Part shown: positions 291 to 38,736 of the stretch, one piece after another
Position numbering within the stretch: position 1 is the stretch's first letter
Layout of the letters: each line of letters begins with the position of its first letter
DNA from: Candidatus Hydrogenedentota bacterium
Lineage (GTDB): Bacteria > Hydrogenedentota > Hydrogenedentia > Hydrogenedentales > SLHB01
NCBI GenBank assembly: GCA_045863335.1
Contig: BTVY01000035.1
Location: forward strand, 13,279 to 77,278
Direction: 5' to 3'
DNA length: 64,000 nt
Notes under the pieces: generated by a model
What the model was told of the DNA's origin: nothing
The model's database searches: none
Seen by the model: the letters and a program-made list of their open reading frames with translations, nothing else
Program-made: the position numbers and the translations under genes

Positions 291-444
291 ATTCTTCCCG
301 CTCGCGTTTGCGTGTTATGCGGGGCTTTCGATAGGCTGTTCAGAACGCAGAAGTGGGGGTACCAGGCGTGAGCGTTCACAAGACGAACCCGGTATGCATT
401 GCAGCTTCCGTTGACGAGACGCGATGGTCCCGAAAGTTCCGCCG

Positions 445-2463
445 ATGATGAAGACGCGTCTCGCAATACCGATCGTGACGTCGCTGCTCCTGAGCGGGGC
501 GTTATCCGCTATGGCCCAAGTTAGCCTTGATTCACTCCTGAATGAGATGACGAGTCTCGACGTGCTAACCCGCATGCCGGACCCGGCATACACGGTGAAG
601 CAATACTCCAGTTACGACCGGCTCTCGCAGGGCGCGCCGCAAGGCAGCGAGGACTGGTTTGCTAACGAGGATCGCGGGAACTTCCTGCGCAGTGAGGAAC
701 GCGAGGGCGCGACCGAATGGGTCATGATGGACGCCGCGGGTCCGGGCGCTATCGTCCGCATCTGGTCGGCGAATCCGGTGGACGCGGGGATCGTGCGGGT
801 CTATCTCGACCACGAGACGACGCCCACCATCGAAATGCCCTTTGCCGAGCTGCTCAGCGGACAAGCGGCTCCGTTTATCGAGCCGATTGCGGGGGTCCGG
901 TCCGCAGGATGGAACAGCTATTTTCCGATCCCGTACGCCGAACACTGCAAGGTAACGGCAAGCAAGCCGGAGTTCTTCTATCACATCAACTACCGTACCT
1001 ATGACGGGGCGGTTGAAGTCGCGAGTTTCCCGCGAGAGATTCCCGCTGAGGCTCTGAATCGTATTCGCGCCGTCGCGGAACGGCTCTCGAGCCCAATGGG
1101 GGCTCCGGCATCGCCAGCGCGGAGCGAAACGCGTTCCCTCACGTACCGGGTGGAACCGGGCGCGGAGCGCGCTGAGATTCTCTCGCACGACGGTTCCGCA
1201 ATTTGCGCTATGGAAGTCCGCGTCACTGCCGACGACGTCGCGACGGCGTTGCGAAAATGCGTCCTGACGATTTCGTTCGACGATGCGGCGCACCCGCAGG
1301 TATGCGCGCCACTCGGCGATTTCTTCGGCACGGCGCCCGGAGCCAACGCGTATGCTTCCCTGCCACTGGCCGTGCGCGACGACGGCACCTTGACGAGCGC
1401 GTGGATCATGCCGTTCCAGCGGTCCGCGCGGATTGCAATACGAAACACCAGCGATGCGCCGGTTCAAATCGATTTGGAGATGGGGATCGACGAGTACGAG
1501 TGGACCGACCGGTCCATGTACTTTCACGCGAACTGGCGCGGCGAGCATCCGGTGCCCACGCGGCCGCGCCGCGACTGGACGCTAATCGACATCGAGGGCG
1601 CGGGCCGGTTCGTGGGAACCATGATGCACGTGGTGAACCCGGTGCTGTTGTGGTGGGGCGAAGGCGACGAGAAGATCTACGTCGACCACGAAGCCTTCCC
1701 CAGCCACTTCGGGACCGGAACGGAAGACTATTTTGGCTACGCGTGGTGCAGTCCCGTGCCGTTCACGCACGCCTACCACAATCAACCCCGCTGCGATGGC
1801 CCGCAAAACTACGGGCACACCTGCGTGAGCCGGTTCCATATACTGGACAACATCCCTTTTACTGAGGCGTTCCGCTTCGACATGGAGATCTGGCACGCGT
1901 GGACCTGCGATATCGCGCTCGCCGCGACCACCTACTGGTACGCGCTGCCGGGTGCAACGTCGAAGCCCGAGGGAATCGACGACGCGGAACTCGTAATCGT
2001 GACCCCTCCCCCGCCGCCGTCGCCGCGATCCGTCGAAGGCGCTTTGGAAGCCGAGTCCCTGGAGATATTGGAGCAGAGCGGTGGAAAGCTCGTCGTCGAG
2101 GACAACGAGAAATACCATTGGAGCGCCGGCAAGCAAGTGCGATGGTCGGGCGGCGCGCCTGGCGATTCAGTGACGTTCGGCTTTCCAGTGGAAAAGGGCG
2201 GCCAATACGAAGTACGCGCGGCATTCACGAAAACAAAACGTTGCGGAATCGTGCAGCTTCATATCAACGGGGAGCCCGCGGACGGCGAACTCGACCTGTA
2301 CGACCCCACCATTGAACCCAGCGGCGAGATTTCGTTGGGAGTCTACGAATTGACGGAAGGTCAGAACATCTTGACCGCGCGGATCATCGGCAAGAACCCG
2401 CGAGCGGTCGGCGACACCTACGCCTTTGGATTGGATTACCTGATGCTGCAACCAGCGCCCTGA
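445..2463 (+). CDS. Secreted DUF2961 (GH172-like) glycoside hydrolase with C-terminal beta-sandwich/CBM-like domain
   Basis: Signal peptide; motifs QYSSYDR, GPGAIVRIWSA, PLGDFFG, WWGEGDEKIYVD, HFGTGTEDYFG. Start could be 424, 445 or 448. Confidence 0.85.
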   Translation: MMKTRLAIPIVTSLLLSGALSAMAQVSLDSLLNEMTSLDVLTRMPDPAYTVKQYSSYDRLSQGAPQGSEDWFANEDRGNFLRSEEREGATEWVMMDAAGPGAIVRIWSANPVDAGIVRVYLDHETTPTIEMPFAELLSGQAAPFIEPIAGVRSAGWNSYFPIPYAEHCKVTASKPEFFYHINYRTYDGAVEVASFPREIPAEALNRIRAVAERLSSPMGAPASPARSETRSLTYRVEPGAERAEILSHDGSAICAMEVRVTADDVATALRKCVLTISFDDAAHPQVCAPLGDFFGTAPGANAYASLPLAVRDDGTLTSAWIMPFQRSARIAIRNTSDAPVQIDLEMGIDEYEWTDRSMYFHANWRGEHPVPTRPRRDWTLIDIEGAGRFVGTMMHVVNPVLLWWGEGDEKIYVDHEAFPSHFGTGTEDYFGYAWCSPVPFTHAYHNQPRCDGPQNYGHTCVSRFHILDNIPFTEAFRFDMEIWHAWTCDIALAATTYWYALPGATSKPEGIDDAELVIVTPPPPPSPRSVEGALEAESLEILEQSGGKLVVEDNEKYHWSAGKQVRWSGGAPGDSVTFGFPVEKGGQYEVRAAFTKTKRCGIVQLHINGEPADGELDLYDPTIEPSGEISLGVYELTEGQNILTARIIGKNPRAVGDTYAFGLDYLMLQPAP

Positions 2464-2511
2464 TTGGACCATGCACGGTGAGGACCGCGGGCGGACGAAG
2501 GAGTTGTTACG

Positions 2512-4524
2512 ATGCGTTATGCCGGTCGTGTTTTGATGTTCGCGTTGGGGGCGGCGGTCGCCATTGGCGCGCAGGGGCAAGTGACGATGGAATCGCTTCT
2601 CGGCGAGATGACTGATCTGACGGCTCTGACGCGGTTCCCGGATCCGGCGTATACCGTGAAGCAGTTCTCGAGCTACGACCGGAGATCCTTGGATCCCGCC
2701 GTGTTGACGGACGAGAACTGGTTTGCCAACGGCGACCGGGGTCAGCACCTGCGCCAGGAAGAGCGCGACGGCGCGACCGAGTGGGTGCTGATGGATGCGG
2801 ACGGCCCGGGAGCAATCGTGCGGTTCTGGTCGGCGAATCCTGCCGACGCCGGGATCGTGCGAATCTACGTGGACGGCAACGCCGAACCCGCCATTGAAAT
2901 GCCCCTCACAGATATGCTCGGCGGGACGGCCGCTCCCTTCGTGAAACCGATCGCTGGCGAACGGTCGCAGGGGTGGAACAGCTACTTGCCGATTCCCTAT
3001 GCACAACACTGCAAAGTCACAACGAGCCAACCCGACTTCTACTACCAGATCAACTACCGGACGTATGCGGACGGCACGCGTGTGCGGAGCTATTCGGAAC
3101 GGGAGTCGGAACGGGCGGCTGCTTTGGTTGAATCGGCTGCGGCAAAGCTTGCTTCACCGGCGGACCTCAACCTGCCGGATTTGCCGAAGCAAGTGGCCAA
3201 GCGCTTTGAACATGCGCTCGAGCCCGGCGCGTCCGGCACGGAGCCGGTGCAAGCGCCCGGCGCCTTGTACGCCCTCGACCTGCGGGTCGAGGCGGACGAT
3301 CTCGAAGCGGCGCTTCGCGGATGCCTGTTTGAGATCTCCTTCGATGGCCTACCCGATGCTTCGGTGGTTTGTCCCCTGGGCGATTTCTTTGGCACCGCGC
3401 CGGGGCCGAATCCTTACGCCTCGTTGCCACTAGGCGTGAACGAGGACGGCACGCTTTATTGCCGGTGGGTGATGCCTTTCCAGCGCGGCGCGGAACTCCG
3501 CTTCACCAACACCACCCATGCGCCCCTGTCGATCTCCGGGACCTACGTGCTGGGCTCCTACGAGTGGACGGACGCGTCCATGTATTTCCATGCGACCTGG
3601 CGAAGCGAGTACCCGGTGGCGACGCAGCCCCGGCAGGACTGGACGTATGTGGATATCGACGGGCAAGGCCGCTTTGTGGGCGACATGCTTCACATCACGA
3701 ATCCGGTGAAGGCCTGGTGGGGCGAAGGCGACGAGAAGATTTACGTGGACAATGAGGATTTCCCCAGCCACTTCGGGACGGGCACGGAGGACTACTACGG
3801 GTACGCGTGGTGCAGCAACATTCCGTTCACGCACGCGTACCACAATCAACCGCGCTGCGATGGCCCCGCCAACCATGGGCAAACCTGCGTGAGCCGCTTT
3901 CACATTATCGACAATATTCCGTTCACGAAGGCGTTCAAATTCGACATGGAGGTATGGCACTGGGAGGAATGCGAGATCGCCATGGCCGCCACGTCGTATT
4001 GGTACGCGATGCCGGGCGCGACCCACTCCGGTCCGCCGATCGACACCGCGGCCTTGAAGATCGTCACGCCACCGCCAGCGCCCGCACCCAAGGTCGTCGA
4101 AGGCGCGTTAGAGGGCGAGAGCCTGAAAGTAGTCGAGCACACGGGAGGAAATGCGGTCGTTCAGTCCAGCGACGCTTGGGAATGGAGCCGCGAACAACAA
4201 TTGTGGTGGCGCGACGGCAAACCCGGCGACCGTCTAACCGTGGAATTCCCTGTGGAGAAGGCAGGGCGCTACGACGTGCGCGCCGTCTTCACGAAAGCCG
4301 TCGACTACGGCATCATGCGCCTGCTCATCAATGGCGAAGAAGTGAACCCGGCACGGGACTTCTACAACAACGGCGTCATCGCCACGCCGGAAGAATCATT
4401 CGGCACGTTTGAACTGAAGGCCGGCGCAAACACATTCACCGCGGAAATCGTCGGCGCTAACGCCGAGGCGATCCCTGGGCACATGTTTGGGCTGGACTAC
4501 CTGCTCTTGGTACCCGCGGAATAG
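2512..4524 (+). CDS. Secreted DUF2961 (GH172-like) glycoside hydrolase, tandem paralog
   Basis: RBS AAGGAG; signal peptide; same QFSSYDR, WWGEGDEK and GTGTEDY motifs; colinear with 445..2463. Confidence 0.87.
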   Translation: MRYAGRVLMFALGAAVAIGAQGQVTMESLLGEMTDLTALTRFPDPAYTVKQFSSYDRRSLDPAVLTDENWFANGDRGQHLRQEERDGATEWVLMDADGPGAIVRFWSANPADAGIVRIYVDGNAEPAIEMPLTDMLGGTAAPFVKPIAGERSQGWNSYLPIPYAQHCKVTTSQPDFYYQINYRTYADGTRVRSYSERESERAAALVESAAAKLASPADLNLPDLPKQVAKRFEHALEPGASGTEPVQAPGALYALDLRVEADDLEAALRGCLFEISFDGLPDASVVCPLGDFFGTAPGPNPYASLPLGVNEDGTLYCRWVMPFQRGAELRFTNTTHAPLSISGTYVLGSYEWTDASMYFHATWRSEYPVATQPRQDWTYVDIDGQGRFVGDMLHITNPVKAWWGEGDEKIYVDNEDFPSHFGTGTEDYYGYAWCSNIPFTHAYHNQPRCDGPANHGQTCVSRFHIIDNIPFTKAFKFDMEVWHWEECEIAMAATSYWYAMPGATHSGPPIDTAALKIVTPPPAPAPKVVEGALEGESLKVVEHTGGNAVVQSSDAWEWSREQQLWWRDGKPGDRLTVEFPVEKAGRYDVRAVFTKAVDYGIMRLLINGEEVNPARDFYNNGVIATPEESFGTFELKAGANTFTAEIVGANAEAIPGHMFGLDYLLLVPAE

Positions 4525-30387: not shown

Positions 30388-31446
30388 GTGATGGACATCG
30401 AAAGCTCCGAGAATAGCAGCACCTCGCCAAGTTCCGCGAGCGCCCCGCAATCCTTCGACAAGGAAGCGCTCAAGAAAGTTACGGCCGGATTTAAGCCGGG
30501 CGAGGTCATTGCCGAACGCTACGAAGTCCAAAAGTTGCTCGGCCGGGGCGGCATGGGCATGGTTTACCTATGTTGGGACCGGGAGATGGAACAGCCGGTC
30601 GCGCTGAAGACCCTCCTTCCCCAATACCTCTCCAGCAGCCACGCCGTGAAGCGTTTCGTGCGCGAAGTCAAGGCCGCGCGCCAGCTCAACCACCCCTGTA
30701 TCGTCAAGGTCTACGATGCGCGCCAAATCGGGCCGCTCCTCTTCTACACCATGGAATATGTGGACGGGATCAGCCTCTTCAAGTGGATCCGCAAAAAAGG
30801 GAAGTTGGGGCTTGGTTCGACCGTGCGCATTCTCAGTTTGCTGTGTCACGCGCTGGAGCACGCCCATCAATTCACTGTCCACCGCGACATCAGCCCCGAC
30901 AATGTGATGGTGCTGAAGAACGGACAGGTGAAACTGTTGGACTTCGGGCTCGCGAAACTGACGAACGTGCAGTCCGCGTTCACGATGATCGGCGTGAGCT
31001 TGGGTAAACAGGATTACATGGCGCCGGAGCAGCGGCTGAGCGCCGCGGGTGTCGATCACCGGGCGGACATCTATTCCTTGGGTGTGATGTTCTACCAGTT
31101 GATCACGGGAGAACTCCCGCGCGCGGGGACTACGCTGACCCGCCTGTGCCCGGATCTTCCGCGGGAAGCCGATGAGTTTGTAGAGAAAGCCATGGCCCAA
31201 TCGGCCGATGAACGCTTTCAGAGCGCGAAAGAATACCGGCTGGCTCTGGCGCACCTGTACAAGGTCTGCACAGGCGTCGTCATCCCGGGCACGGACGACG
31301 GCGACATCACGAAGATTCAGTTCGCGGAGGACACCCCGCCGCCGGTCGACACCGACCACTCCGGCACCGCCCAAGCAACTTCCGGTTCCTTCCTGGCGCG
31401 GATACGAACGACGTTGGGAAAGTTCTTGCCGTTCCTGAAGCCGTAG
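30388..31446 (+). CDS. Hanks-type Ser/Thr protein kinase, cytoplasmic
   Basis: GRGGMG.V, VALK, HRDISPDN, DFG, YMAPE, DIYSLG. Confidence 0.92.
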   Translation: MMDIESSENSSTSPSSASAPQSFDKEALKKVTAGFKPGEVIAERYEVQKLLGRGGMGMVYLCWDREMEQPVALKTLLPQYLSSSHAVKRFVREVKAARQLNHPCIVKVYDARQIGPLLFYTMEYVDGISLFKWIRKKGKLGLGSTVRILSLLCHALEHAHQFTVHRDISPDNVMVLKNGQVKLLDFGLAKLTNVQSAFTMIGVSLGKQDYMAPEQRLSAAGVDHRADIYSLGVMFYQLITGELPRAGTTLTRLCPDLPREADEFVEKAMAQSADERFQSAKEYRLALAHLYKVCTGVVIPGTDDGDITKIQFAEDTPPPVDTDHSGTAQATSGSFLARIRTTLGKFLPFLKP

Positions 31447-32260: not shown

Positions 32261-33475
32261 TCAAAGCGACTGTATCCACAACCAGGCCGCGGCAACGGCC
32301 AGCGTAGCCACGGTAACCGGGAGCCCCGTGCGGGCGTGCTCGACCCAGGTGATGCGGATACCGAGGCGTTGCGCCTGGTCGACCACGATGATGTTGGCAA
32401 TGCTGCCGACGATAAACAGATTGCCCGCCAAGGTGCTCGACAGTGCGAGAATTGCGCCCGCGCTGGGATGGGTTGCCGACGGAATCAGCAGCATCGTGGC
32501 GGGTACGTTCGATACGAGATTGGACAGCACGGTCGAAACGATGAAGAGCGTTACGGGCTGTTCGGCATCGATGTGAATTCGGCGAAGCCCTTCCATGACC
32601 TGGCCGAGGACGCCGGAGGTGTCCAGCACGTGATTCACGATGAACAGTCCACCGAAGAGCACCAAAAGATGCCAATCCACAAGGCCGAGAATCTCGCGGG
32701 ATTCCATGCGCCGGCTCATCAGCAAGATACCGGCGGCGCTAAGGGCGGCCACTTCCCGCGGGATGCCGGTGAACAGAAAGACGACCATGAGCACGGCAAT
32801 CACGACTATGCCTTTGCTGCTTTGCCAGACATTGAGTTGCGGCGCGTCAATATGGGGTACGCTGTGGTCGCCCGTCCACCGTGTGCGGTAGAGAATGCAA
32901 ATCACAACCCAAACAACTGCCAGCCCGATCACGCTTGGAACCGATGCATCGATCAGGTAGCCCGTGAAGGACAGGTCCAGTGCCTGGCCGATGAGCATGT
33001 TCTGCGGGTTGCCGATCAGGGTTGCCGCGGAACCGACATTGGCCGCGCAGGCCAGCGCGAGCAGAAAGGGGACCGGGTTGAGCCGCCGCCGGGCGCAGCC
33101 TTCCACGAGCACGGGCGCCATGGCCAAACAGACGATGTCGTTGGCGAGCACGGCCGAGAGAACGCCGCTTACCGCAATGAGGAGCGCAAGCAAGACGCCA
33201 GGCGACACGTCGGCATTAGCAAGTTTGCGTGTTACAAAGGAGTAGAACCCGCCCAGGCGGAACTGGGCCGAAACCACCATGAGTCCAAGCAGAAGCAGTA
33301 TCGTCGGTTCGTCGACGGCGTCCCAAGCCTCCTGTGGTCCGATCTTCCCCAGCACGAGAAAAGCGATCGCGCCAAGCAATGCAATGCCGGTACGGTCGAG
33401 CGCAAGGCCGGGATAGCGGCCAAAGACCATACCCAGGTAAACAAGAATGAAGATGACGAGTACGGCGGTGTCCAT
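32261..33475 (-). CDS. Anion transporter (ArsB/NhaD/YbiR-like)
   Basis: LDRTGIALLGA, LANDIVC, ANVGSAATLIGNPQN, SNLVSNVPA, STLAGN..IVGSIANIIV. Confidence 0.9.
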   Translation of the reverse strand: MDTAVLVIFILVYLGMVFGRYPGLALDRTGIALLGAIAFLVLGKIGPQEAWDAVDEPTILLLLGLMVVSAQFRLGGFYSFVTRKLANADVSPGVLLALLIAVSGVLSAVLANDIVCLAMAPVLVEGCARRRLNPVPFLLALACAANVGSAATLIGNPQNMLIGQALDLSFTGYLIDASVPSVIGLAVVWVVICILYRTRWTGDHSVPHIDAPQLNVWQSSKGIVVIAVLMVVFLFTGIPREVAALSAAGILLMSRRMESREILGLVDWHLLVLFGGLFIVNHVLDTSGVLGQVMEGLRRIHIDAEQPVTLFIVSTVLSNLVSNVPATMLLIPSATHPSAGAILALSSTLAGNLFIVGSIANIIVVDQAQRLGIRITWVEHARTGLPVTVATLAVAAAWLWIQSL

Positions 33476-33520
33476 GGCGCGCAAGTATACGCCCGCGCGC
33501 CATGGACATCACAGATGACG

Positions 33521-35431
33521 TTAGCGCAGGAACGGTCCAACCTGCTCATTGAAGTCGGAGATCGTCATTCGCTCCACGTGCCCGTCGAGAAAGAGCACGT
33601 TTCGCGTGGCCGGTTTGCCTCCGACTGCGGGGATGTCCTCGATGTTGTACATGAGCGGCACCATCGATTGGGCGCGTGCCCGCAGCGCCGGGTCGTTGAA
33701 ATCCACTTCTCCTTGCGTTGCGAGATAGTCCACGGCCATGGCCTCGATATCTTCCTCGGTCATGGCTGGGAACAGGATTTCATAGGAGAGCATGCCGGCT
33801 TCGTGCCAGGGCGAGGTTAACACGTTCGTATCGCTGAGGTACTCTGGATAGACCGTGCAGAATCCGGGCATCGTATATTCGCAATTCTCGTTTGCGAACA
33901 TCTTGTTGACGAGGCCAAGCTGCTTGAGATTGTTCTGGTCGGAGGCGATCATTGCGGACCACTGCGCCGCGACGGCGGTCGCGTCAGTCGCCAGGACCTC
34001 GAATTCAGCCATCATGGACCGGCTGCCGGTATCGCCTTGCGCGCTCAACGTGACGATCTGATCGGGATCACGGTACGCAACTTCGATGAGATTGGGCACA
34101 AAGGGCGCGGGACCGCCCCATAATTGTTGTAGTTCGGCCTCGTGCGCGAGCAAGGCCTGCCCCGGATCGGGCGAGTTCCTGCAACCTGGAATCCCGGGGA
34201 ATGACCTAGTTTGCGGAAGGGCTTGGCCGGAGACGTAGGTAACCACGCGGTTGTCCCGGCTTGCGTACAAATCCGTGGACGCGGTGTAGTCCGGGATCAA
34301 CAGCGAAAGGGCACTCGGGAACTGGCCGTCGTGCGCCTCGGCGTAGGCTCGAAGCGGTCCATACATGGCGCTGACTTCATCAAGGCGCGCCTGCAACAGC
34401 GCGCGCGGATCCTGATTGGGAGAATTCTCGTCGATCCGGCTGAGCTTGACGGCGTAGGAATGGTTCTCGGGGTCCGGCAGGGTCATGTCGCTCGCGAGCG
34501 AAGCGGACAATTCCGGCGAGGTCAACACGACCTCGGTGAACGCGTTGTTGAAGGTCCCGCGTAGGGACCCCAGTTCCTCGCCGCTCGCTATCCGCGTGAC
34601 GATCAGCGTGTTGCCGTCAAGACGCGCTTCGCCAAAATCTTCCATATCGCCATCGGTGACTTGGACGACACCGCCGGTTTCCTCAAACGTCAACGTGTCG
34701 CCGTAATCCACCACCTTGTCGTCGACAAGCACCGCCAGTTGCCAACGGCCGTCGAGCCGCGGACGCGAGGCGATGACGCCGGGGCCTTTAGTGAGGACCT
34801 CAAGGTTGCCCCGATTGCTCAAGATGATCCGCGTTTGCTGCACGTCCTGCAGGATAACCTCGTCGAAGACGCTATCGCCCGGGCGATAGATATGCTGCTC
34901 GCCGGTATCGTTGTTCTTGAGAACCGCCTGCGGGTCCCCCCCTAGCAGCGTGCCGGTGAGCGTCAGCGGAAGCGACGTTTCCGGGAGCGCGGCCGGCGGC
35001 GCCGCTACCGGGGTTCCGTCCAGCGTGGTGTCGTTCTGCGCGATGACTGTTTGGTCGAGGCCCTGGGAGTTGTCGCGATCGATGGCGACGATGGGCGCTT
35101 GGGACTCCGGCGGCCCGCTCATCGGCGCGTTGAAATGGCGGAATGCTGCATACCCGGCAATGGCGGCCACCGCGATCATCGCGACCGCGATGGCGTAAGT
35201 TCGGAACTTTTGCGATGGTGTGCTTTCTGCTTCGCGAATGCGATCGATGACGGGACCGTGCAGTCCCATGGGGATGGCCTGTGTTAACAACATGGTTCGC
35301 ACCCTTTCCAGGTCTTTCAACGTGGCGGCACAGTCCGGACACGCTCGCAGATGGGCCTCGACCGCGCGCCGTTCAGCGGCGGGAAGCTCCTGGTCCAGGT
35401 AGGCCGACAAGTTGGCGTCGTTACAGTTCAT
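33521..35431 (-). CDS. zf-HC2 anti-sigma factor with extracytoplasmic GspC-like and DUF1559/H-X9-DG-like domains
   Basis: LSAYLDQEL...VEAHLRACPDC (HxxxCxxC), single TM, start overlapping the ECF stop; see findings. Confidence 0.85.
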   Translation of the reverse strand: MNCNDANLSAYLDQELPAAERRAVEAHLRACPDCAATLKDLERVRTMLLTQAIPMGLHGPVIDRIREAESTPSQKFRTYAIAVAMIAVAAIAGYAAFRHFNAPMSGPPESQAPIVAIDRDNSQGLDQTVIAQNDTTLDGTPVAAPPAALPETSLPLTLTGTLLGGDPQAVLKNNDTGEQHIYRPGDSVFDEVILQDVQQTRIILSNRGNLEVLTKGPGVIASRPRLDGRWQLAVLVDDKVVDYGDTLTFEETGGVVQVTDGDMEDFGEARLDGNTLIVTRIASGEELGSLRGTFNNAFTEVVLTSPELSASLASDMTLPDPENHSYAVKLSRIDENSPNQDPRALLQARLDEVSAMYGPLRAYAEAHDGQFPSALSLLIPDYTASTDLYASRDNRVVTYVSGQALPQTRSFPGIPGCRNSPDPGQALLAHEAELQQLWGGPAPFVPNLIEVAYRDPDQIVTLSAQGDTGSRSMMAEFEVLATDATAVAAQWSAMIASDQNNLKQLGLVNKMFANENCEYTMPGFCTVYPEYLSDTNVLTSPWHEAGMLSYEILFPAMTEEDIEAMAVDYLATQGEVDFNDPALRARAQSMVPLMYNIEDIPAVGGKPATRNVLFLDGHVERMTISDFNEQVGPFLR

Positions 35432-36002
35432 GTACGTTCTTTCCCAAATACTGTCCATCCCGATCGAGGAGGGTGGCGAGGCGTTTGCGGCCCCGGTGAA
35501 TCCACACCTTGACCTCGTCCAGGGATGCGCCGAGCGTTTCGGCGATTTCGGCATACCGGAGATCGCCGAACTCGCGCAGCATCAGCGCGGAACGATGGTT
35601 GGCGGGCAAGTCCGCCAGCGCGCGATTCAACTGTTCGCGCAGCAGCGACGACTCGGTTGCGCCGTTGTGCTGTGCCAGGAACGAGTCTTCCAAGGGCACG
35701 GATGGCCTGGCGCGCCGGCGGTTGTCCGCAGCCAGGTTGTGGGCGATCGCAAACAGAAATGATCGCGTCGACCCGCCGGGGCGGAGCTTTCGGGCACGCA
35801 TGGCCTGGTACAAGCGGAACAACGACTCCTGCACGATGTCCTCGGCCTCATGGGAGTTCCGGACCATCCCATAGGCATACCCGTAGAGCGGCCCTTCCAG
35901 ACGGGTGCACAGGAGTTCGAACGCGTTCACGTCCCCGCTGCACACACGCTTGATAAGACCCGCCTCATCCAGACTCGTTGGCGACCCACCGTGCATGTTC
36001 AT
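35421..36002 (-). CDS. ECF RNA polymerase sigma factor
   Basis: GD..AFE.L, EAEDIVQE.L, FLFAIAHN...D..RR, LP..HRSALMLRE..DLRYAEIAE.LG.S...VK..IHRGR..L. Confidence 0.92.
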   Translation of the reverse strand: MNMHGGSPTSLDEAGLIKRVCSGDVNAFELLCTRLEGPLYGYAYGMVRNSHEAEDIVQESLFRLYQAMRARKLRPGGSTRSFLFAIAHNLAADNRRRARPSVPLEDSFLAQHNGATESSLLREQLNRALADLPANHRSALMLREFGDLRYAEIAETLGASLDEVKVWIHRGRKRLATLLDRDGQYLGKNVHEL

Positions 36003-36155
36003 CGTTCCGTCATTGTATACGCGGAATCGAATGAGAAGTTACAGTGCGTGATGACCGTGCCGGAAGTTTGCGATCAGAAGCATAGCGGGCGTACGCATGC
36101 CGGACCCGAGGTCAGGTCGCGTTGCAGCGATTGGGATCATGTCAGGCATACGGCT

Positions 36156-38618: not shown

Positions 38619-38736
38619 AACACAAGTTATGATAACCAACCCAACCTGAGCCCTACATATTGTGGATGTGCTTCCACAACGCCGGCGAATGAGGGGTAAG
38701 GATCCGGTTCCATTTCTTGCGGAGTGTGCAGCGGCG

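Follow-up and report, generated by a model that had tools for sequence, protein, structure and literature searches.

Extracytoplasmic function (ECF) sigma factors and their anti-sigma partners form a major bacterial signalling system, in which the input sensed by the outer domains is known for few pairs. What, then, is sensed by a pair whose anti-sigma factor carries parts of a secretion machine and of pilins outside the membrane? Such a pair is encoded in a 64,000-nt stretch of DNA from a sludge bacterium, Candidatus Hydrogenedentota bacterium (BTVY01000035.1, positions 13,279–77,278), which belongs to a 105-contig draft assembly of 6.75 Mb. The whole stretch is referred to here as the window, and all coordinates given below are window positions. 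A combination of an ECF sigma factor and a single-pass anti-sigma factor is in itself a known kind of system. The approximately 490 periplasmic residues of this anti-sigma factor, however, are modelled as a series of four domains, namely an HR domain of the GspC type, a small β-barrel and, in tandem, a pair of pilin-like heads. We tentatively read the protein, at a probability of roughly 0.45, as a periplasmic protein-contact sensor that is docked through its HR domain and would release the sigma factor onto its own operon. In the following, W denotes the window locus and numbered handles denote fetched loci (L), genomes (G), protein representatives (P) and contigs (C).

The sigma factor, its anti-sigma partner and their promoter

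The features of the operon and of the encoded sensor, all on the minus strand, are as follows.

36015–36043 (−): ECF-type promoter TGTAAC-N16-CGTATAC, its final base 12 nt ahead of the sigma ATG
35421–36002 (−): ECF (group 4) sigma-70 factor, 193 aa
33521–35431 (−): anti-sigma factor gene, 636 aa plus stop codon
35216–35431 (−): cytoplasmic anti-sigma domain, residues 1–72, with zinc ligands C3, H27, C31 and C34
35138–35200 (−): single transmembrane helix, residues ~78–98, from a hydropathy scan
34784–34984 (−): GspC-HR/PilP-fold domain (HR), residues 150–216
34424–34765 (−): small closed eight-stranded β-barrel, residues 223–336, model confidence (pLDDT) ~85–95
34004–34414 (−): first pilin-like domain (PIL1), residues 340–476
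33524–33982 (−): compacted DUF1559/H-X9-DG-type domain (D1559), residues 484–636

The sigma factor consists of sigma-2 and sigma-4 domains only within its 193 aa, the composition of an ECF (group 4) factor. Both Sigma70_r2 (50 bits) and Sigma70_r4_2 (53.7 bits) match above their Pfam cut-offs and TIGR02937 reaches 78.3 bits (cut-off 42.9); every NCBIfam equivalog scores below its respective cut-off. The open reading frame of the anti-sigma factor is open from 35554, and its start was placed at 35431 because all homologues begin with MNC or MTC at this point. The resulting ATG overlaps the sigma stop codon, so that the two genes share 11 nt, and a sigma gene immediately precedes the sensor gene at each of the 14 further loci examined. 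The first-pass annotation of this DNA had described an ECF sigma/anti-sigma pair with an HxxxCxxC zinc finger followed by a membrane span, and this description is upheld by the domain matches, the gene overlap and the elements described next.

The cytoplasmic domain matches Pfam zf-HC2 at residues 7–35 (E = 1.3e-10; 41.6 bits against 22.2), and its four ligands, C3 and the H27-x3-C31-x2-C34 motif, were found unchanged in each of 12 aligned family sequences. The protein has one hydrophobic span, with a helix at residues 79–98 also present in the first AlphaFold2 (AF2) model, and is taken to cross the inner membrane once, the topology being assigned by analogy. Its best sequence matches in the PDB are the Mycobacterium tuberculosis anti-sigma factor RslA (3hug_B, E = 3.5e-5), Legionella LspC (7oio, E = 3.2e-4) and the GspC HR domain of enterotoxigenic Escherichia coli (3oss_C, E = 7.3e-4). 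The HxxxCxxC motif with an upstream cysteine, the single membrane helix, the position of the gene directly behind and overlapping the sigma gene and the autoregulated ECF-type promoter are all shared with RslA/SigL of M. tuberculosis (3hug), RsiW/SigW of Bacillus subtilis (5wuq) and RseA/RpoE of E. coli. The protein differs from these in its extracytoplasmic part of ~490 residues, with four domains from type II secretion or pilus parts; RslA, RsiW and RseA are not known to have such outer domains.

The two promoter words and their 16-nt spacing are the same at eight orthologous loci (W, L011–L015, L085 and L091), and the promoter is kept down to 56% sigma identity. Among the same-genus genomes the pattern marks the orthologous promoter in four of five, the sole match in G004 lying elsewhere. 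The exact sequence TGTAAC-N16-CGTATAC occurs once in the 6.75-Mb genome, ahead of the sigma gene. Allowing one mismatch added three sites in the genome, none of them convincing (a reversed control gave 0), and the genome-wide counts of looser patterns did not rise above a composition-based expectation, which is our own estimate. Because the promoter has a single copy in the genome, the visible regulon is the sigma factor's own operon, which, as far as the motif can tell, would include a downstream ArsB/CitMHS-type permease. The pair thus forms an autoregulated operon of an ECF sigma factor and a class-I zinc-finger anti-sigma factor. Promoters of the form GTAAC...CGTA are reported for other ECF groups in a part of the ECF reclassification (PMC7826278).

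Additional matches to the promoter pattern in G001 and G002 were considered as targets and rejected as copies of a repeat element. This multi-copy repeat of ~70 nt, AGACGCGGTTTGTAACCGCGTTTCTTGGGCTTCGTATAT...GCGGCTACAAGCCGCGTCTAC, occurs in both genomes (L079, L080, L087–L090, L092, L093, L095 and L096) and fits the pattern by chance; some copies lie near a sigma paralogue of 32% identity.

Domains of the periplasmic region

The fold of the ectodomain was modelled with AF2 for residues 148–636 from an alignment of 105 sequences (mean pLDDT 91.8, pTM 0.74); this model supersedes an earlier one of the whole protein, built from 11 sequences, for which the mean pLDDT was 52.9. Directly outside the membrane, a Pfam T2SSC match covers residues 85–213 with 45.7 bits against a gathering score of 27 and includes the LPLTLTG...NLEVL stretch (residues 154–213, window 34793–34972) that had been read from the sequence as a GspC-HR/PilP fold. 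The structural comparison agrees with that reading. The best Foldseek match of the HR domain is the GspC HR domain of enterotoxigenic Escherichia coli taken from the GspC–GspD complex (3oss_C; TM-score 0.93, root-mean-square deviation 1.0 Å), and VIA-align to the same chain gave Z = 12.1 and 1.1 Å over 64 aligned residues with 27% identity. Further Z-scores were obtained for PilP (9.4 for 3jc8_Pa, 8.0 and 7.5), the PulC HR domain (8.2; 6hcg_e), LspC (7.2) and GspB (7.1), and the domain is 32% identical to the genome's own GspC across 59 aa. The order of a membrane helix, a Pro/Ala-rich linker and an HR domain is common to this protein and to GspC and PilP (3oss, 6hcg, 3jc8 and 2ivw). The anti-sigma factor nevertheless differs from GspC in having neither a PDZ domain (no Pfam match) nor a coiled-coil domain and in bearing a cytoplasmic anti-sigma domain. 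It also scores far below the GspC equivalog cut-offs (NF041515, 23.1 against 150; TIGR01713, 12.5 against 101.6), and its gene lies outside any gsp operon, the canonical gspC-gspD-gspE genes being located separately on contig C11.

The β-rich segment that had been noticed behind the HR domain is modelled as a small closed β-barrel. Its structural matches are weak, with Z-scores of 6–8 to Cap15, avidins, lipocalins and designed barrels, and define a fold class only: the scores are spread over many unrelated small barrels, and family scans gave no sequence-family match. The barrel is followed by PIL1, which contains LRAYAEAHDGQFPSALSLLIPDY (residues 360–382), and the earlier impression of a pilin-like segment is supported here by the matches of the modelled fold to the type IV pilins PilA4 (6xxd, Z = 7.0), PilV (Z = 6.5) and K122-4 (Z = 5.8). 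Profile–profile comparison by hhalign aligned PIL1 to D1559 with a probability of 95.6% (E = 1.1e-8, 58 columns) and to the genome's own DUF1559 paralogues with 89% (E = 2.2e-6), which identifies PIL1 as a divergent copy of the last, DUF1559-type domain. With the barrel domain as a negative control, the hhalign probability was 0.1%.

In the last domain, SDQNNLKQLGLVNKMFANE begins at residue 497 and RNVLFLDGHVE spans residues 610–620. A degenerate DUF1559/H-X9-DG domain had been proposed here, to be checked segment by segment against profiles. That check succeeded for T2SSC and for a profile of the genome's own DUF1559 paralogues and failed for the two public DUF1559-type models: PF07596 gave no match to the C-terminal 289 aa even at E values as high as 10, its 37 matches in the genome do not include this gene, and TIGR04294 reached 12.4 bits over a ten-residue match, under its cut-off of 19. 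A hidden Markov model (HMM) of 32 own-genome DUF1559 paralogues, in turn, matched the anti-sigma factor (P0001) with 60.3 bits (E = 1.6e-19) and all 11 family members with E between 1.4e-18 and 2.7e-26, the sigma factor as a control giving E = 0.57. By hhalign, D1559 aligns to the 32 paralogues with a probability of 100% (E = 4.6e-38, 133 columns). Two proteins of the same architecture with more canonical sequences, P0047 and P0061, exceed the PF07596 threshold itself (29.4 and 25.9 against 23.3 bits). The paralogue HMM, the profile–profile match and these two Pfam scores establish that D1559 is homologous to DUF1559, and it is a compacted relative of ~150 aa compared with the 263 positions of the paralogue profile.

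The compaction is accompanied by the loss of hallmark residues, as had been suspected. The genome's own paralogues carry ...ASCQNNLKQ(L/M)G(L/I)VFKMYANES... and ...H-PGG-NVLY-DGHVEF. In alignments with them, D498 and S540 occupy the two canonical cysteine positions, and the H-X9-DG position is Gly or Lys, with no His upstream of the DG motif. Over the 105 family sequences both cysteines are present in 45, neither in 48 and one in 12, a pattern suggestive of a disulfide that is either kept or lost as a whole. Neither Pfam nor the alignments revealed an N_methyl or prepilin motif in the anti-sigma factor, and the two pilin-like domains, which have no hydrophobic helix and no leader, are both remote from the N-terminus. 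The pilin-like domains are derived from the large DUF1559/H-X9-DG prepilin-like family of this genome. With DUF1559/SBP_bac_10 proteins (PF07596 and TIGR04294), D1559 shares the NNLKQ helix, the YPEYL(T/S)D motif and the C-terminal NVL(F/Y)xDGHV strand. It differs from the DUF1559 proteins of Planctomycetota, Verrucomicrobiota and Hydrogenedentota in that the N_methyl leader and the hydrophobic α1-N helix are absent, the Cys pair and the His are gone and the domain is placed at the C-terminus of a multidomain protein. Look-alike searches in the Atlas were uninformative for residues 222–480 (top score 0.77) and yielded only leads for residues 484–636, namely short Verrucomicrobiota proteins and a cluster of which 17% of the members carry PF07596.

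Mean pairwise identity over 47 sequences of the same architecture is 0.42 for D1559, 0.36 for HR, 0.27 for PIL1 and 0.20 for the barrel. HR and D1559 are the best conserved and are therefore the domains most likely to bind conserved partners.

Occurrence of the sensor module and its neighbourhood

The homologues fall into ten clusters, nine of them full length (47–93% identity) and one truncated, and all that are named belong to Hydrogenedentes; five full-length loci were found in other assemblies. A phylum survey at E ≤ 1e-40 gave matches in 27 of 135 species genomes, including 20 of 53 in the organism's own family and five of five in its own genus. A profile search of 1.84 billion representatives returned 118 proteins at E ≤ 1e-30. 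The best 150 representatives, classed by sub-profiles, show the following architectures.

37: anti-sigma domain, HR and onwards to D1559 (same architecture)
5: anti-sigma domain and D1559, long, with HR undetected
4: HR and onwards to D1559 without anti-sigma domain, probably N-truncated
3: anti-sigma domain and HR only, likely fragments
32: ECF sigma factor fused through a membrane helix to (barrel), PIL1 and D1559
1: sigma factor, anti-sigma domain and HR, fused
21: short N-terminal anchor with the same module
4: short anti-sigma domain with D1559
6: multi-repeat D1559 proteins
5: anti-sigma domain only or in repeats
32: short pieces

The search for the same architecture thus demonstrates that the fusion is not unique to this assembly. 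The trivial explanation would be that the contig is chimeric or that the gene call joins separate genes. Nothing was found in its favour, and its probability is practically negligible: apart from the 37 representative clusters and the five loci in other assemblies, near-identical DNA is found in many sludge and bioreactor runs, and contigs from four public runs of four studies, with at least 99% identity and no joints or indels, jointly span every domain junction. One of the four runs is an RNA library that possibly also contains DNA. We conclude that the fusion is real and not an assembly artefact.

The sigma-fused proteins (P0013 at L017:4645–6870 and 31 more) are 683–879 aa long and contain a complete ECF sigma factor; a short linker and a single membrane helix connect it with the barrel/pilin-like module, and no anti-sigma domain is recognisable. 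Pfam sigma domains were verified in seven of seven fused representatives tested, and P0093 combines zf-HC2 with a sigma factor. From their sequences, the sigma-fused proteins look like membrane-tethered sigma factors. The short fusions P0146, P0151, P0154 and P0155, all four of which score above the PF07596 cut-off, are likewise ECF anti-sigma factors with an outer domain descended from DUF1559. In these, the membrane helix is continuous with ...ARE(A/S)ARR(A/S)S-x-QNN(L/M/F)K..., whereas in the protein described here HR, barrel and PIL1 separate the helix from a D1559 that is compacted and Cys-less.

A second copy of the sensor is present in the same genome (G000:C21:46354–48120, minus strand, the same place as L098:259–2025). 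Its product of 588 aa starts with a brief cytoplasmic tail and a membrane helix, which are followed by HR, barrel, PIL1 and D1559. The copy has neither an anti-sigma domain nor an upstream sigma gene, and is divergent from a zinc-ribbon Ser/Thr kinase gene. The related G004 locus (L115), beside a kinase that is 74% identical, retains an upstream sigma gene. At L148 (G100:C61), positions 537–3965 encode a 1142-aa protein with four DUF1559-type repeats immediately upstream of an HR-PIL1-D1559 protein.

Three further features lie close to the anti-sigma gene in the window.

32261–33484 (−): ArsB/CitMHS-superfamily permease, Pfam CitMHS E = 2.5e-61
33472–33505 (−): perfect 11-bp inverted repeat CCATGGCGCGC-N12-GCGCGCCATGG, between the anti-sigma and permease genes
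30388–31446 (+): Ser/Thr protein kinase, Pfam Pkinase E = 7e-43

The permease matches the NCBIfam models MamN and ArsB far under their cut-offs. The gap between the anti-sigma and permease genes is 37 nt to a TTG start or 46 nt to the ATG at 33475, and no terminator-like site was found in it; the permease is probably co-transcribed with the anti-sigma gene. It lies downstream of the anti-sigma gene in W, L011, L012 and L013 and not in L014, and this conservation extends down to 48% anti-sigma identity. The permease ATG (33475) falls within the 3′ arm of the inverted repeat. The −10 word of the sigma promoter, CGTATAC, is present in the loop, and TGTGAT precedes it at a distance of 16 nt. The repeat is identical in L011 and L012 and shorter in L013, and could be a hairpin that occludes the permease start codon or a weak second promoter.

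Of the 23 Ser/Thr kinase matches in the 6.75-Mb genome, one lies less than 3 kb from each of the two sensor copies. The window kinase and the C21 kinase (L098:2009–3220) are mutual best paralogues in a BLAST comparison of 22 own kinase open reading frames (224 bits, the next being 174), and the kinases at L114:7576–10722 and L115:7685–9583 match these two first. Members of this subfamily are found near the module at eight of 32 loci in three clades, among them the window, L012, L013, L114, L115, L146 and L147, and are absent at the other 24, including all nine anchor-only or sigma-fused loci fetched together.

More distant genes of the window comprise two tandem DUF2961 proteins of 670–680 aa (424–4524, plus strand), a large Wzx/Wzy-type exopolysaccharide cluster (9025–30238; Wzz, Poly_export, glycosyltransferases, Wzy_C and Bac_transf) and a 1369-aa protein (38662–42771, plus strand) with an acidic, repetitive N-terminal half in which QDELDRA-like motifs recur, a single membrane span and TPR repeats at its C-terminus.

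Candidate inputs and their consequences

As a protein-contact sensor, the system would operate as follows. The zinc-finger domain would hold the sigma factor at the membrane, as in RsiW/RseA-type systems, with HR and the last pilin-like domain binding conserved partners in the periplasm. HR domains of GspC and PilP bind the N0 domain of secretins, and by analogy the HR domain here would most likely dock on N0 of a genome-encoded channel of the secretin family. The distal pilin-like heads may then provide the sensing surface for a DUF1559 pilin-like system or for a substance bound to it. A signal would trigger stepwise proteolysis of the anti-sigma factor, again by analogy, for which the genome encodes an RseP-type M50 site-2 protease. 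The freed sigma factor would transcribe from TGTAAC-N16-CGTATAC, that is, its own operon and the downstream permease, and the dedicated Ser/Thr kinase subfamily may supply a second input.

The first-pass annotation had gone on to suggest a trans-envelope device for monitoring a secretin, a pseudopilus or a DUF1559 ligand, and for this suggestion there is evidence on both sides. That the sensor monitors a secretin is plausible by analogy with GspC and PilP. The near-perfect structural match of HR to a GspC HR domain solved together with GspD and its rank as the second most conserved periplasmic part speak for docking, and elsewhere in the genome there are a canonical gspC-gspD-gspE cluster and eight matches to secretin models, seven of them over the cut-off. 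A comparable arrangement is the FecR/FecA/FecI system, in which the periplasmic domain of an inner-membrane anti-sigma factor contacts an N0/STN-type domain of an outer-membrane protein; the likeness is one of analogy, since the locus has no FecR domain or TonB-dependent transducer and an outer-membrane contact is hypothetical here. Genomic context supplies one weak lead. In G012 (L108, G012:C193 390–6923), the sigma/anti-sigma pair lies just upstream of an operon that encodes, in order, a Skp-like protein of 143 aa, a TPR lipoprotein, a pair of short secretins and an Lnt-like protein, where the Skp-like, TPR-lipoprotein and Lnt-like names are a reading of the sequences and not family matches. 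The operon is orthologous to C46:13.5–19.2 kb (L120) of the genome studied here and has its own conserved ECF-like promoter, TG(C/A/G)AAC-N16-GTATA(C/T)A, ~250–300 nt upstream, which is similar to that of the sigma factor but not the same. A TGTAAC-N17-CGTAT sequence upstream of the C46 operon was rejected as a target, six orthologous regions conserving TG(C/A/G)AAC-N16-GTATA(C/T)A instead.

Several observations weigh against an HR-docked contact sensor. The Pfam scan detected no type II secretion system, pilus or secretin gene in the window, and at 13 of the 14 further loci no type II secretion gene is linked and the genes nearby are unrelated and differ from locus to locus. Glycoside hydrolases, sulfatases, kinases and, in one case, a DUF1559 prepilin are encoded in these neighbourhoods. 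In G012 a terminator-like hairpin and a 717-bp gap separate the pair from the secretin operon. This operon is found in 30 of 31 relatives and the sensor in 27 of 135 genomes; the two are therefore not co-distributed. The 32 sigma-fused and 21 anchor-only relatives retain the rest of the sensor but have no HR, and the core sensor therefore works without it. The sole promoter of the type used by this sigma factor is its own, and a permease as output does not indicate secretion. The four conserved zinc ligands, finally, would also be compatible with a redox switch in the cytoplasm.

Other explanations were weighed as well. The barrel or the pilin-like heads might bind a small molecule or a glycan fragment without any docking on a secretin, with HR serving as a spacer or for oligomerisation and the permease carrying out uptake or efflux. 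Such a soluble-ligand sensor, which we regard as somewhat unlikely, would suit the calycin/avidin-like fold class of the barrel, the permease operon as the only visible target, the core module without HR in the sigma-fused and anchor-only representatives and the frequent glycoside hydrolase and sulfatase neighbours at other loci. Yet the barrel is the least conserved domain (0.20), its Z-scores lie within the range of unrelated folds and the family scans matched no ligand-binding family; HR, conversely, is strongly conserved (0.36), and a spacer would have no need to preserve the GspC-HR fold to within 1.1 Å. It is also conceivable that activity is set by the adjacent kinase, through phosphorylation of either the sigma factor or the anti-sigma domain in the cytoplasm, and that the periplasmic module is an anchor or scaffold. 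The recurrence of one subfamily, best paralogues of each other, beside both sensor copies in a genome with 23 kinase matches, and beside the module at eight loci in three clades, fits this proposal. We nonetheless judge it very unlikely, given that most loci (24 of 32, nine anchor-only or sigma-fused ones among them) are without the kinase and that a complete zinc-finger anti-sigma domain is present, whereas kinase-controlled ECF groups are not known to have an anti-sigma factor.

A cytoplasmic thiol/redox (ZAS) switch of the RsrA/RslA kind, in which oxidation of the C3/H27/C31/C34 zinc site frees the sigma factor and the periplasmic part is no sensor, would explain why none of the four ligands varies among the 12 sequences and why RslA (3hug_B) is the best PDB sequence match. 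It appears most improbable in view of the conserved and confidently folded periplasmic region of 490 residues, which implies selection for a periplasmic function, and of the fusion of the same module to sigma factors without a zinc finger; moreover, many zf-HC2 anti-sigma factors bind zinc structurally only. The HR-docked protein-contact sensor is the leading explanation, at the probability given above. Its furthest-reaching form is secretin-coupled cell-surface signalling, with HR seated on the N0 ring of a secretin and the DUF1559 heads reading a pilin-like DUF1559 system or its cargo to switch the ECF sigma factor. We consider this form unlikely. If true, an HR domain would for the first time have a role in signalling and the very large DUF1559 family would gain its first functional handle, and the membrane-tethered, sigma-fused relatives would represent a one-protein version of the same pathway.

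Three elements were not found in the literature searched: a GspC-HR domain in an anti-sigma factor, the core module of barrel and tandem pilin-like domains, and the use of this module with three signalling heads. The search returned no anti-sigma factor with a DUF1559 or T2SSC domain, the listed co-mentions of GspC being incidental by title, and, judged by title, no work on DUF1559 or H-X9-DG that concerns anti-sigma factors. The passages of text and supplement drawn from the ECF reclassification (PMC7826278) contain no T2SSC, SBP_bac_10, DUF1559 or Hydrogenedentes, and its other supplements could bear on this.

Few uncharacterised families of Planctomycetota, Verrucomicrobiota and Hydrogenedentota are as large as DUF1559, which has 37 Pfam matches in this genome alone. 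Here, one sensor module is combined with three signalling heads, namely an anti-sigma domain, a whole sigma factor and a bare anchor. The promoter and the sigma factor are both defined and the ectodomain of 490 residues is folded with confidence; these offer testable entry points, through which the system could reveal the binding partners of DUF1559 and whether secretins feed into transcription.

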